From Candidatus Poribacteria bacterium (GTDB lineage Bacteria; Poribacteria; WGA-4E; WGA-3G): DNA of 64,000 nt. The DNA lies in assembly GCA_965205065.1 (NCBI GenBank), contig CBDBFT010000001.1:5102569-5166568 (forward strand). The letters are read 5' to 3'. A program made the translations under genes and the position numbers. Below, in pieces: positions 38,158 through 41,580 of this stretch. Position 1 is the first letter of the stretch; every line of letters begins with the position of its first letter. The notes beneath the pieces were generated by a model, which did no database searches, was not told the DNA's origin, and was given only the letters and a program-made list of their open reading frames with translations.

Positions 38158-39606
38158 TTATTCTGTCTCTTTTTCTAACTCTGATAAGATGGATTTTGCA
38201 AAATCCTTATCAAAGTTTTTGTTCACCAGTTTCCTTGCCAGTGAGCGTTTTTGCTCTGCGGTTGCCCCCTTGACATCAGACACAAGTGTGCGAACTTGAG
38301 AAACAACTAACTTTTGCAGCTCGGTTGTCCGAGACTTGAGATGTTCGCGTTCCTGCGGTGTCGGGAAGAACTCATCCATCTCTTCAGGGGACATATAACG
38401 CGAGGCAATCACATCAATATATGACTCATTAAAATCTGAACGCCACGACTCCAGTCGTGATTGGGCAGATGTGAAAGACCGAACAGGATCGTATGCAGAT
38501 GTGGCAGAAACGTCTGGATCAGAAGTCGTGGGTGTAGCTGTTACTGTATCCGACGGTGCCGATAGAACATCAGGCACCCCCGTATTCTGTGCCGAGACCG
38601 GTTTAGAAGCCGCCTCATACTCCGCAATAATCTGCCGAAGTCTATCCTGAAACTCAACTTGCACCTGCGGAAGTCTGTCCTTAAGACGTTCTGCTACCAT
38701 TTTGTTGATATTCTCATCAAAATTCCTATCAAATTCTAACCATTCTATATATCGATGACTAATAGCCAAACTGTCACGTTTAAAATCCGCCCATTCTGAG
38801 TCTCCTTCTGCCTCAGCATCACGGATTTGTTGTTCCTTTACTGCTATCTGATCACGTTCTTCTTGTATTTTTGTTTCATAATACAACTCAGGATCCGCAG
38901 CCTTTAACGCCAGGTCTTTACGCACCTTTTCAGCCACACTTGTCCGCATATCGTTATATGAAACTAATGTACTATAGACAAAACTCACGGTGATCAGCAC
39001 TTTCTCATCTTTTTGATAAGATGTCACAGGATTACCATCTAAGCCCTTATAATAGTCCTCAACAAGCTTGCGATACTGCGGAATTTTCTGATATGCTTTG
39101 GGTAAAAAACCGATCAACTTGTTGATAATATCGGCTTCACTTATACTTTCTATATCTTCAAATTGATCCATCATCGCAGCGATTTTTTGCTTGTCTGATT
39201 CGGACAGGGTGTGATGCCGGTTCCATCTTTCTAACAAGGCATTCATATCCATATCAAGGGGTGAAGGGGATTCAGTTGTGACCTGCTCCGTAGTGTTCAT
39301 CGGAGGGGCTAACGCACCCCCCGATTCAACGACGATAGAAGATTTTTGATGTCCAGTGGCAGTATTATTGACCATCAAGGGAGCAGTCCGCTTTTTATGA
39401 TCCCGATAGAAACTAATAGATGTAAGGATACCGAAAATTAATAGAAAAACGGCACCAGAGAAAATAAGTCCTCTCACTTTATTTTTCTTATCTTTCATTC
39501 TTAAATACGGCATAATACTGTATATGAACAAAACAATACCGATTAGAATAAGAATATACCCCACTTCTGACCTCATGCTATTGTCCTCCGTTACCTGTTT
39601 TTGCAT
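38158..39606 (-). CDS. hypothetical 2-TM membrane protein with long charged/coiled-coil and Ser/Thr-rich cytoplasmic region
   Basis: Two hydrophobic helices (residues ~15-35 and ~45-67), with no recognisable domain. Its start overlaps the upstream partner by 29 bp. Confidence 0.5.
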   Translation of the reverse strand: MQKQVTEDNSMRSEVGYILILIGIVLFIYSIMPYLRMKDKKNKVRGLIFSGAVFLLIFGILTSISFYRDHKKRTAPLMVNNTATGHQKSSIVVESGGALAPPMNTTEQVTTESPSPLDMDMNALLERWNRHHTLSESDKQKIAAMMDQFEDIESISEADIINKLIGFLPKAYQKIPQYRKLVEDYYKGLDGNPVTSYQKDEKVLITVSFVYSTLVSYNDMRTSVAEKVRKDLALKAADPELYYETKIQEERDQIAVKEQQIRDAEAEGDSEWADFKRDSLAISHRYIEWLEFDRNFDENINKMVAERLKDRLPQVQVEFQDRLRQIIAEYEAASKPVSAQNTGVPDVLSAPSDTVTATPTTSDPDVSATSAYDPVRSFTSAQSRLESWRSDFNESYIDVIASRYMSPEEMDEFFPTPQEREHLKSRTTELQKLVVSQVRTLVSDVKGATAEQKRSLARKLVNKNFDKDFAKSILSELEKETE

Positions 39607-40522
39607 TCCATTTGTCGCGAACTTCTTTAACTTGTGCTGCTAAATCAGGATCCTCCATAGCCTCGCTCCATGCTTCAGGAAAATTCGTCTCTGCTGTCTC
39701 AAGAGTATAAATCGCCCATTCCGTTTGTCCAACAGCGTCCTGAATGGTAGCACTATTTATTGTCTTTTCAACTAACATCGATGTCAAGTCTGCCACTTTT
39801 TTATCCAAAGCAGCCTTCGCAGATTTGAAAAGATTCGTTGCAAGTTCCGCAGCAAGCTTATATTGACCATAAGTGCCTCCAACTGTATAATAGTTGTCCC
39901 AGGCATCCGATACAGCTCGTGTTTTGGTCACCACATTAGCCTGTGCATTGTCCAATGCGGTTTTCTTGTCTTTCATAGTTTTTATGGCAGCCTGCCACTT
40001 ATTATACAATCGCTTCTGCTCACGATAATTGCCTGACGACCTCAGGCAATCTAATCTCCAATCATTGTATGCCTGGTATTCTTCATCGACAGCCGTATCG
40101 TAGGCAGTCTGTGCAGTCGTAACAGCCGTTTTGGCAGTCTCAAGATTCGTGTTTGCAGTAGGTATGGCCTTTTCTGCTGCTTCATACTTTTCTTTCCACT
40201 CCTCCGCCTCCGTTTCTGCACTATCTTTCACTGTTTTAGCATTCTGCTTCGTAATTGTTAGACGCTTAATATCATCCTGAAGAACCGCGATTTTTTCATC
40301 AAAGTCTTTGTGTATCAACTCCGCTCCACCCCAAACGGTTAGAGCTGTTAAACCAATAGTGACAGTTTTTTTAACCAATATCGCTGCTGGCACACCAAAA
40401 ATAAGAAGCGGACCCACGGCGTATATGAAGGACGATACAGAAATTAGAGAAAGACATAAGAAACTGACAAACAGAATACTCAATAACGTTCGGTTTTCGG
40501 TTTGATAACGAATAAATTGCAT
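39578..40522 (-). CDS. hypothetical 2-TM membrane protein with about 230-aa alpha-helical coiled-coil domain
   Basis: An AAAGGAG ribosome-binding site before the start. TM helices (LSILFVSFLCLSLISVSSFIYAVGPLLIFGVPAAILV). Ala/Lys/Thr-rich heptad-like region. Confidence 0.5.
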   Translation of the reverse strand: MQFIRYQTENRTLLSILFVSFLCLSLISVSSFIYAVGPLLIFGVPAAILVKKTVTIGLTALTVWGGAELIHKDFDEKIAVLQDDIKRLTITKQNAKTVKDSAETEAEEWKEKYEAAEKAIPTANTNLETAKTAVTTAQTAYDTAVDEEYQAYNDWRLDCLRSSGNYREQKRLYNKWQAAIKTMKDKKTALDNAQANVVTKTRAVSDAWDNYYTVGGTYGQYKLAAELATNLFKSAKAALDKKVADLTSMLVEKTINSATIQDAVGQTEWAIYTLETAETNFPEAWSEAMEDPDLAAQVKEVRDKWNAKTGNGGQ

Positions 40523-40699
40523 TTTAATTTCTCCTTTGGATTTTCATCTATAGAAATTATTCAATATCTGACAGACCACAAAGGAGATGTTGGAAGGTAA
40601 AATGCACAGCAATGTTGCTGCCAACTGTTCCTTTGGGGTGCGCTGGTTTTCATCTATCTATTGCATCAAACTAATGTTTGTGGTAAAATGAAAACCAGC

Positions 40700-40796
40700 T
40701 CTGTCATACTCTATCTATGGCAGTGCTACGCGCTGATAGTGTTAACGGCACTGTCGGCGCGCCCCCACAAGGGGTAAACGCTCCCCGGTGTCATAC
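40700..40796. other. GC-rich 78-bp structured element flanked by 8-bp direct repeats (tgtcatac) inside a 1-kb AT-rich leader
   Basis: tgtcatac | tctatctatggcagtgctacgcgctgatagtgttaacggcactgtcggcgcgcccccacaaggggtaaacgctccccgg | tgtcatac. Several alternative hairpins are possible. A 12-bp inverted repeat (gctggttttcat / atgaaaaccagc) lies at 40641-40699. Confidence 0.3.
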
Positions 40797-41205
40797 ACTC
40801 TAATAGTATATTGATAACACCTACTTTATATTATACAACACTTTCAAGAATATGTCAACATTTTTTTCTGATTTCCTGATTTCGGTCTGCAAGAGGTGGC
40901 AAGGTTATTGTTACTTTTCTGTCAGAATCGCACAATCTGACAGAATGTGCTACAGATACTATCAATATGAATGTTAGCAGAAACGGTAAGCAACTATGAA
41001 TGGATTATGGATAGATGTGTTTGAGCGTTGCCGATTAATAGTTTTCAAAGATAGGCACTACAAAATCAACGCGCTTCGGATAACCAGAAGATAAAGGTAA
41101 TTTAAGCGAAGGTATCCCCAGAAACCATTTTACTCCCTCAATTTTACCGATATGTTGATATATTATCCGATCCTTACCTATCTTTGCTTCAAGTGTGATA
41201 GGCTT

Positions 41206-41580
41206 CTAAACAGGCACAACATTTTCAAAATGGAACTTCCCGTCCACATCGGTGAAAACAGGTTCTCCTGGCTTATCCAAAAAAGGAGAATTGTAGTATA
41301 TTTCAATATTATTAAGGGAACTTATCGTTTTATCCCCATCTTTTATGACGACTTCACCGAAAACCGTTCCTTTAATTGCGCTACGCCATTTTCCTGCTAC
41401 AAAATCATATACAGAAAATATTGTAAACGTTATTGTCATTAATACTAACCAACGAATTGCCTCTGTCAGGGAACTCCGTGAGTAGAATTACTATTGACCA
41501 TAATAGCATCCACAATACTAAGAATATGTACGCATAAATAGAAGAATTTTTCTTTCGCATAAACATCAGCCTCTTAAGGG
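41206..41580 (-). pseudogene. frameshifted small secreted protein with carboxypeptidase-regulatory/transthyretin-like domain
   Basis: A signal/TM-containing ORF (MFMRKKNSSIYAYIFLVLWMLLWSIVILL...) ends at a TGA. The domain (GKWRSAIKGTVFGEVVIKDGDKTI...TDVDGKFHFENV) then continues in the +1 frame. Confidence 0.3.

Follow-up and report, generated by a model that had tools for sequence, protein, structure and literature searches.

Riboswitch-type leaders with platforms that sequester the Shine-Dalgarno (SD) sequence are among the described systems closest to the RNA reported here, which heads a two-gene operon, A-B, in a 64-kb stretch of the genome of a Candidatus Poribacteria bacterium (assembly GCA_965205065.1, contig CBDBFT010000001.1, positions 5,102,569 to 5,166,568; hereafter the window). 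Like those leaders, this RNA lies in the 5' untranslated region (UTR) on the strand of the gene, has covarying helices and a multi-helix junction with near-invariant nucleotides, and contains an anti-SD strand with two alternative predicted partners. Cyclic di-GMP (GEMM) riboswitches, which occur in multiple copies ahead of heterogeneous surface-protein genes, appear by analogy to be closest in behaviour, the RNA here also being present in many copies per genome ahead of a functionally loose set of mostly extracytoplasmic genes. It differs from known riboswitches in that it has no Rfam match, its promoter travels with it as one module, and it is found almost only in Poribacteria-type genomes. 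At ~255 nucleotides (nt) it is also larger than most aptamers.

The motif sets of orphan structured RNAs of Weinberg et al. 2017 reportedly include one named 'Poribacteria-1'. Our RNA resembles those orphan RNAs in being structured, lineage-restricted, intergenic and recognised by covariation; if Poribacteria-1 is in Rfam 15, it is another RNA, since no Rfam family matched copies of either of the two subtypes (types I and II) that we describe below. Literature searches for a poribacterial RNA motif or riboswitch, and for 'Poribacteria-1' in full text, returned nothing relevant, the supplement of Weinberg et al. lying outside their coverage. A different comparison is with dispersed repeats that bring a promoter and with miniature elements, Correia/NEMIS elements and REP-type repeats being examples. 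Here too there is a multi-copy module, ~300 bp long, with sharp boundaries, unrelated flanks and a promoter for the downstream gene. The module differs from those repeats in having no terminal inverted repeats or conserved target-site duplication, in its orientation bias towards the downstream gene, and in its complex, non-palindromic fold, which is kept by compensatory change. We place the RNA family as a structured cis-regulatory leader, or riboswitch candidate, that matches no Rfam family.

A structured RNA that travels with its promoter

All features of the A-B locus are on the minus strand of the window. The promoter, the RNA and the parts of the predicted switch are as follows, in the direction of transcription.

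40853-40858, minus strand: -35 hexamer TTGACA of a 12/12 consensus promoter with a 17-nt spacer
40830-40835, minus strand: -10 hexamer TATAAT; judged by spacing, transcription would start near 40823
40569-40823, minus strand: structured RNA of ~255 nt, with helices P1, P1a, P2, P2a, P3, P4, P5, P5a, P6 and P7 and the 3' tail GGUCUGUCA, defined by conservation, covariation and profile
40700-40796, minus strand: GC-rich core, with the 3' strands of P1a and P1, the 5' strand of P2, the P2a hairpin, P3, the conserved junction UAGCAC and P4, defined by GC content and helix support
40642-40699, minus strand: helix P5 with inner hairpin P5a (40667-40680), containing a 12-bp inverted repeat (40642-40653 / 40688-40699)
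40598-40605, minus strand: GCAUUUUA, complementary to the start-codon region UAAAAUGC (40519-40526) and paired with it in the minimum-free-energy fold
40579-40587, minus strand: putative anti-SD UCUCCUUUG, the 3' strand of P6, its partner being AAAGGA (40629-40634) in the conserved fold and the SD in the minimum-free-energy fold
40530-40538, minus strand: SD region CAAAGGAGA of gene A, the exact complement of UCUCCUUUG

The promoter (40858-40830, minus strand) is a perfect sigma-70 consensus, and a sigma-70-like promoter scoring at least 9/12 was present at the same position in 73 of 78 family copies, compared with 15 of 78 control regions. Transcription from near 40823 would give a 5' UTR of ~300 nt. 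A family profile searched with nhmmer located a single copy in the window (40566-40821, E = 1.3e-61) and found no second one in the 64 kb. When all copies were compared with one another by BLAST, similarity was limited to about -140 to +165 around the pattern by which they had been gathered, that is, to promoter plus RNA, and the flanks were unrelated. No terminator-like site was found between the RNA and gene A in the window.

Between the -35 hexamer and the start codon, the leader shares 98% identity with one syntenic locus (L003) and 91% with another (L004). Protein A is far less conserved, at 79% and 49% identity, respectively. Both loci have the order lepA-lepB-selB-lipA-gap-A-B, and alignability to them ends at the -35 hexamer, with nothing upstream of the promoter aligning. 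The element also stands ahead of A homologues in unrelated neighbourhoods (90% identical in L001, 82% in L002, and 73% in L005 and L006), and in L007 it precedes another operon, the last gene of which is a B homologue; non-syntenic copies are 73-91% identical to the window RNA.

To survey the family more widely, we scanned one genome per species from 185,579 species for the exact pattern TAGCACTGCCAT-N9-ATGACAG (19 specified bases over 28 nt). The scan returned 81 stretches, about 77 of them in Candidatus Poribacteria or sponge-type metagenome-assembled genomes with full-length copies, and up to six in one chromosome (for example, OZ244616.1). Four loci from other phyla matched just the 28-nt pattern, about the number expected by chance, and were rejected as members. 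The pattern had no match among IMG/VR viral contigs, so there is no evidence of a phage-borne RNA. Copies fall into two main subtypes, type I, which includes the window copy, and type II, one subgroup of which lacks the 5' stem; the nhmmer profile added a diverged second copy in L045. As judged from these sequence comparisons, the RNA is a dispersed, multi-copy promoter-plus-leader module, detected by the scan almost only in Poribacteria-type genomes. An earlier reading of the window, made from the letters alone (the sequence-only reading), had described the leader together with this operon; the RNA is not confined to it and precedes many unrelated genes in Poribacteria.

RNAalifold, run separately on the two subtypes, gave the same architecture. 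P1 (GGUGU/ACACC) carries the inner hairpin P1a; the long-range helix P2 (GGGG/CCCC) closes a junction that contains P2a, P3, P4 and P5, the last with its own inner hairpin P5a; P6 (AAAGGA/UCCUUU) encloses P7 (GUUGG/CCAAC), and the tail GGUCUGUCA comes last. We tested a 60-pair version of this fold for covariation on a structure-blind MAFFT alignment of 60 copies, using as controls partners slid by 1-3 columns and 500 shuffles. In all, 90.3% of cells were paired, compared with 36-45% with slid partners. Cells altered on both sides numbered 221, against 30-75 with slid partners and 89 in shuffles, and none of the 500 shuffles reached 221, a statistic inflated by the division of the copies into two main clades. 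The abundant G-U pairs identify the minus strand as the sense strand.

Compensatory changes were seen in helix after helix. P1 changes from GGUGU/ACACC to GACGU/ACGUC and P2a from CCCC/GGGG to CCUAA/UUAGG, while P3 shows exchanges of A-U to C-G and of A-U to G-C. P5, in which 98% of cells are paired across the 60 copies with CG, UA and UG exchanges, is wholly rewritten in L032 and L051 (GCUAACCU-AAU / AUUUAGGUUAGC). P6 occurs in the versions AAAGG/CCUUU, CGAAGG/CCUUUCG, CUACAAGG/CCUUGUAG and CUAUAGGG/CCCUAUAG. The whole UTR of the window folds at -104 kcal/mol (z = -5.76). We conclude that the element is almost certainly genuine as a conserved structured RNA. The 12-bp perfect inverted repeat that the sequence-only reading had picked out is present, as helix P5.

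The Rfam scan of the leader region proposed by that reading yielded no family. Rfam 15 (4,227 models) gave no match over 40400-41700 even at E <= 10, save chance scores to microRNA and CRISPR-repeat models, and none at the element in a scan of the whole window, at 15 other loci or, with an E-value threshold, in two type II copies. Taken together, these scans covered the window and 17 other copies, with gathering as well as E-value thresholds. Two other identities were tried and rejected. A kinship with cobalamin riboswitches was suggested by a superficial likeness to GCCACUG and the B12 box but received no Rfam score, and a leader peptide of 22 codons would begin at the AUG of GUAUGACACC, a start that type II copies, with AUUAC there, have lost. 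At the Poribacteria locus L042 (6972-7056, plus strand), far from the element, Rfam reported an isolated match to the Burkholderia small RNA (sRNA) ncS025 at 50 bits (gathering threshold 46), which is probably spurious.

Some individual copies depart from the common form. In L034 (4681-4866 and 6089-6159) an insertion of ~1.2 kb, with an open reading frame (ORF) on the opposite strand, interrupts the copy at model position 189/190; L020 has the same diverged 3' part and opposite-strand ORF. In L066 (3787-4061, minus strand) the copy follows the window RNA almost exactly as far as the end of P5, then diverges fully and runs directly into a PD40-repeat gene; from its sequence it would be either a recombinant or a decayed member without the P6/P7 switch domain. 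The 50,655-bp contig of L005 (ctg848656_10x_c) has a complete RNA-A-B cassette together with a phage-type integrase, helix-turn-helix (HTH) proteins and a weak match to T5orf172. The contig, the name of which ends in _c, possibly for circular, may represent a plasmid or other mobile element.

Probable action in cis and a predicted translational switch

The position of the RNA relative to genes points to action in cis. The dominant ORF among those within 700 nt downstream is on the strand of the RNA in 70 of 75 copies, whereas upstream genes split 26 to 32 between the strands; insertion-disrupted copies account for two of the three exceptions to the downstream pattern. Type I copies end 15-70 nt ahead of the next start codon, and the motif AAGGAGA follows 22 of 31 of them, whereas in the window it stands ahead of only 2 of the 44 long ORFs. 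A compensatory fold and a 5' UTR position on the gene's strand are together what is looked for in a structured cis-regulatory leader, and both were found here. The RNA probably acts in cis. The sequence-only reading had proposed a cis-regulatory RNA ahead of an operon for unknown membrane proteins, and both the covariation and a leader far more conserved than the genes bear this out.

Clustering and Pfam searches of the downstream ORFs returned A-like proteins and several other families of ~250-300 amino acids (aa) without a Pfam match, the N-termini of which are mostly hydrophobic and signal-peptide-like, as judged by eye. Other products are ~1,000-aa cadherin-plus-dockerin proteins and PD40, WD40 and LRR repeat proteins, and further domains include FlgD_ig, NPCBM and Por_Secre_tail, as well as SodC and GMC oxidoreductase. 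Most of the downstream proteins had no Pfam match. The common theme is one of extracytoplasmic or surface proteins, with exceptions; DDE transposases, a fusion of type I restriction-modification functions and N6/N4 DNA methylases are also encoded behind the RNA. These genes offer no clear hint of a ligand.

The strand UCUCCUUUG has two possible partners, one within the RNA and one at the ribosome-binding site, and a translational switch is suggested by this. When the full UTR is folded to minimum free energy, it retains the 5' domain, a helix between anti-SD and SD takes the place of P6/P7, and GCAUUUUA pairs with UAAAAUGC. In L002 both sides of the latter pairing have changed (CAUCUUUA / UUAAGAUG), and 7 of its 8 pairs with the start-codon region are retained. 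Some loci extend the duplex between switch region and ribosome-binding site in their own way, by GGAAC:GUUCU in the L012 family and into a 14-bp duplex in L068. In the methylase-linked subgroup of type II the equivalent strand, UAUAGUCCU, complements AGGACUAUG, which includes the SD and start codon, and in the cadherin-linked subgroup UAGACUGU complements the downstream ACAGUCUA.

These pairings suggest the following mechanism. The sigma-70 promoter would start a transcript near 40823, the first ~255 nt of which would fold into the 5' stem P1/P1a, the junction closed by P2, and the 3' domain P6/P7. With P6/P7 formed, UCUCCUUUG would pair internally with AAAGGA and leave the ribosome-binding site of gene A free; in the alternative state, UCUCCUUUG would pair with CAAAGGAGA and GCAUUUUA with the start codon, blocking translation. 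The minimum-free-energy state is the blocked one, and an effector would therefore probably turn expression on. Candidates for the trigger are small molecules, proteins and physical signals.

On balance, we favour the view that 40569-40858 (minus strand) is a copy of the dispersed promoter-plus-leader module and that its RNA switches translation of the A-B operon in cis. Whether it would work by SD sequestration is an even call, and that it would be a ligand-binding riboswitch is doubtful. Across 21 type I loci the predicted duplex between switch region and ribosome-binding site had a median energy of -16.6 kcal/mol, compared with -9.9 for shuffles (median z = -2.75), but a swap control gave a median of -15.75 kcal/mol, so the motif common to all loci accounts for most of this energy. 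Several further points count against our view. Any pyrimidine-rich CUCCUU stretch complements an SD, and among type II copies just 1 of 55 has AAGGAGA. Type II copies lie 70-400 nt from very heterogeneous genes, DNA methylases and transposases included; for some copies, the next 450 nt contain no ORF of 50 aa or more, and one subgroup, the methylase-linked one, has a U-run directly after the element, both of which would fit a free-standing RNA. The covariation alignment was built from sequence only rather than on a covariance model, its shuffle statistics are inflated as noted above, and the 19 pattern positions are invariant by construction because the copies were gathered by exact match. Finally, whereas the data show family membership, conservation, covariation, the promoter, the strand bias and the complementarity to the ribosome-binding site, we infer the transcription start, the switching and its direction.

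These same observations bear on the other explanations that we considered. If the copies were genes for free-standing sRNAs acting in trans from their own promoters, with the downstream genes bystanders or reached by read-through, one could account for the promoter being conserved as part of the module, for the several near-identical copies per genome, for the heterogeneous downstream genes and the copies without a nearby ORF, and for the U-run of the methylase-linked subgroup. Such an arrangement would not account for downstream genes that share the strand of the RNA in 70 of 75 copies when upstream genes are unbiased, for the 15-70 nt between type I copies and the start codon, or for complementarity to the ribosome-binding site with locus-specific compensating extensions, and no terminator-like site follows the window copy; we regard it as improbable. 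Similarly improbable, in our estimate, is that the module is a dispersed promoter-plus-5'-UTR expression cassette, giving strong constitutive transcription and mRNA stability without sensing anything. The perfect or near-perfect promoter, the discrete boundaries with unrelated flanks and the presence in front of transposase and methylase genes in addition to those for surface proteins all suit a cassette, and the L034 copy, cut by its 1.2-kb insertion, suggests that some copies are dispensable. A simple stabiliser, however, would have no need of ten compensatorily kept helices and a near-invariant junction, or of two mutually exclusive anti-SD pairings that are predicted to be conserved. The copies also show no terminal inverted repeats or target-site duplications, the sole candidate repeat being found in 6 of 83.

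That candidate repeat, TGTCATAC, is the basis of the remaining explanation, which follows the sequence-only reading: a leader peculiar to this operon would hold an independent hairpin and, between the two halves of an 8-bp target-site duplication, either a miniature insertion of 78 bp or a small RNA. Part of this description holds. The repeat occurs at 40702 and 40789, 87 nt apart, and only three times in the whole 64 kb, and the block between the two copies is GC-rich (56.7%, compared with 36-37% in the flanks). On the RNA strand, however, it reads GUAUGACA and lies inside conserved helices of one larger RNA, one occurrence being at the 3' strands of P1a/P1 and the other in the 3' strand of P4. 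Both are present in only 6 of 83 family members, the other 77 lacking the pair. It is thus no target-site duplication, and the block is no independent insertion. In a search for the block elsewhere, as that reading had proposed, it recurred in family copies, always as part of the whole RNA and never apart from it. The block is the core of one ~255-nt RNA rather than a structure of its own, and we consider the insertion proposal extremely improbable.

Proteins A and B and the region around them

The remaining features of the locus are as follows.

41038-41560, minus strand: pseudogene, the remnant of a gene for a membrane-anchored protein of 169-195 aa, identified by tblastn with P0063, P0066 and P0069
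40917-40953, minus strand: 10-bp inverted repeat (40917-40926 / 40936-40945) overlapping a 23-nt motif, between pseudogene and promoter
39578-40522, minus strand: gene A, 314 aa, from the ORF listing
38158-39576, minus strand: gene B, probably 472 aa from the ATG at 39576; the longest ORF, 38158-39606, is 482 aa
38101-38127, minus strand: terminator-like site closing the A-B operon, with an 11-bp stem containing 5 GC pairs, a 5-nt loop and UUUUUU

Both adjacent minus-strand genes of the sequence-only reading are present as ORFs, but the overlap it described between them arises from the choice of the longest ORF for B. Homologues of B are 458-472 aa long and cover 97-98% of the 482-aa ORF. At the junction, which reads ...GGAGGACAATAG C ATGAGG..., an ATG at 39576 lies 1 nt past the TAG stop of A and is preceded by GGAGG. 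The start of B is therefore most likely at 39576, and the 29-nt overlap of A and B most likely an artefact. The strong intrinsic terminator that the sequence-only reading described at the end of the operon was found as a hairpin and T-run at 38127-38101 (minus strand), which qualifies as an intrinsic (Rho-independent) terminator by consensus match only.

AlphaFold models of the two proteins agree with the hydrophobic helices and long alpha-helical domains that had been read from their sequences. The model of A (mean predicted local distance difference test score, pLDDT, 80.6) has N-terminal hydrophobic helices, an antiparallel hairpin of two ~100-residue helices and a small, conserved C-terminal helical module; hairpin and C-terminal module exceed 90, and the hydrophobic N-terminus is poorly defined. 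In that of B (mean pLDDT 72.8), a pair of hydrophobic helices at the N-terminus is followed by two helical domains with disordered linkers; the C-terminus of B is conserved. Protein A has only 11 close relatives and, in a profile search of 1.8 billion cluster representatives, only 31 at profile level, and both proteins were found only in Poribacteria-type assemblies. As the models have it, A and B would be membrane-anchored helical proteins, among the mostly secreted or surface proteins behind the RNA.

Two related genes were seen in other loci. In L003 (6947-7375) an extra gene for 142 aa lies between A and B, and its product combines the N-terminal membrane segment of B (residues 1-77) with the C-terminal module of A at its own C-terminus, which suggests that the A/B family shuffles modules. 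In L001 a 144-aa gene follows A.

No recognisable domain had been noted in either protein, and this stood: searches of Pfam, NCBIfam and PADLOC with A, B and their neighbours gave nothing significant, the PADLOC defence models returning just coiled-coil noise against JetC (E = 1.4e-3), and sequence profiles of the PDB matched neither protein. The structure and profile comparisons that the sequence-only reading had proposed likewise ended without a significant family or fold match. Foldseek against the PDB gave nothing for A at E <= 0.001 and no fold match for B, and against viral structures it returned for A generic tape-measure-like coiled coils only. The best PDB fold matches of A were AhlB and SmhB (TM-score 0.56-0.57, root-mean-square deviation about 6 Å over 237 columns; best E = 2.4e-3, TM-score 0.56), members of the ClyA family of tripartite alpha-pore-forming toxins. 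The model of A shares with these an elongated antiparallel helical hairpin with a hydrophobic segment, and its gene a place in a small multi-gene operon. It differs in lacking any match at E <= 0.001 and any sequence similarity, in having its hydrophobic helices at the N-terminus and not in a head domain, and in that generic coiled coils (chemoreceptors, SMC, tape-measure) score about equally. We thus rejected membership of A/B in the ClyA family, finding no significant sequence or fold similarity, and treat the modelled resemblance of A to pore-formers as a lead, not a finding. Of the novel system (signalling, envelope or defence) with a cis-regulatory RNA that had been proposed, the RNA part is borne out, whereas no homology or fold match gives A or B a function.

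The gap upstream of A (40523-41573) is, as the sequence-only reading said, the longest in the window, measured between ORFs of at least 100 aa. It is not a 1,050-bp non-coding leader, however, and consists of three parts: a broken gene, ~180 bp of spacer, and the promoter with the ~300-nt 5' UTR. By tblastn, P0063, P0066 and P0069 align to the pseudogene at 41038-41560 with 81-91% identity; the alignments use two reading frames and cross an in-frame TAG, residues 1-28 being encoded in one frame and 29-169 in another. Its lesions are one frameshift near 41476 and the one TAG at 41206-41208. When its translation is read through the TAG, intact homologues are 169-195 aa long, with at most 91% identity, the value for the intact P0063, and 94-100% of the length covered. 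These homologues come from Poribacteria-type assemblies, one of them assigned to Candidatus Poribacteria. The annotation of the source genome has just a 77-aa fragment (P0083) of the pseudogene.

In the spacer, the 23-nt motif GTAGCACATTCTGTNAGATTGTG (40931-40953, minus strand) occurs once in the window. At the same intergenic site in L003 (5104-5190) there are three tandem copies with a period of 32, and the motif is absent from the other 87 loci.

Upstream of A-B lie lipA (41574-42560), tRNA-Sec (42536-42625) and selB, and downstream lies dapB. The longest lipA ORF (41574-42560, minus strand), which begins with a GTG at 42560, overlaps at its 5' end with the tRNA-Sec gene (minus strand; Rfam 75.7 bits) that lies between selB and lipA; lipA homologues are 301-303 aa long, so the real start of lipA is probably further downstream than this GTG. 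The window also contains a complete bacterial 16S rRNA gene (57194-58744, minus strand) and an adjoining tRNA gene (56998-57071, minus strand), which would allow a precise placement of the organism.

Implications for Poribacteria

Poribacteria are uncultivated and widespread symbionts of sponges, and to our knowledge next to nothing has been established about their gene regulation. For annotation, the family means that ~300 bp ahead of dozens of poribacterial genes are a functional RNA and not empty spacer, and that A and B now belong to a defined set of candidate co-regulated genes. The RNA is also a tractable handle: it is large and well defined, covaries strongly, comes in dozens of natural variants, has a clear candidate expression platform and can be studied without culturing the organism.

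Secreted, surface and eukaryote-like repeat proteins have long been suspected of mediating interaction with the host. We raise as a tentative idea, and one we think doubtful, that the RNA is a new riboswitch class or direct sensor of a second messenger or host metabolite that co-ordinately switches a regulon of such proteins. If this were true, the RNA would govern the cell-surface repertoire of the symbiont in sponges, through a regulon comprising the cadherin/dockerin, PD40/WD40, LRR and A/B proteins. Finding the trigger of the RNA would reveal a signal that the symbiont reads.

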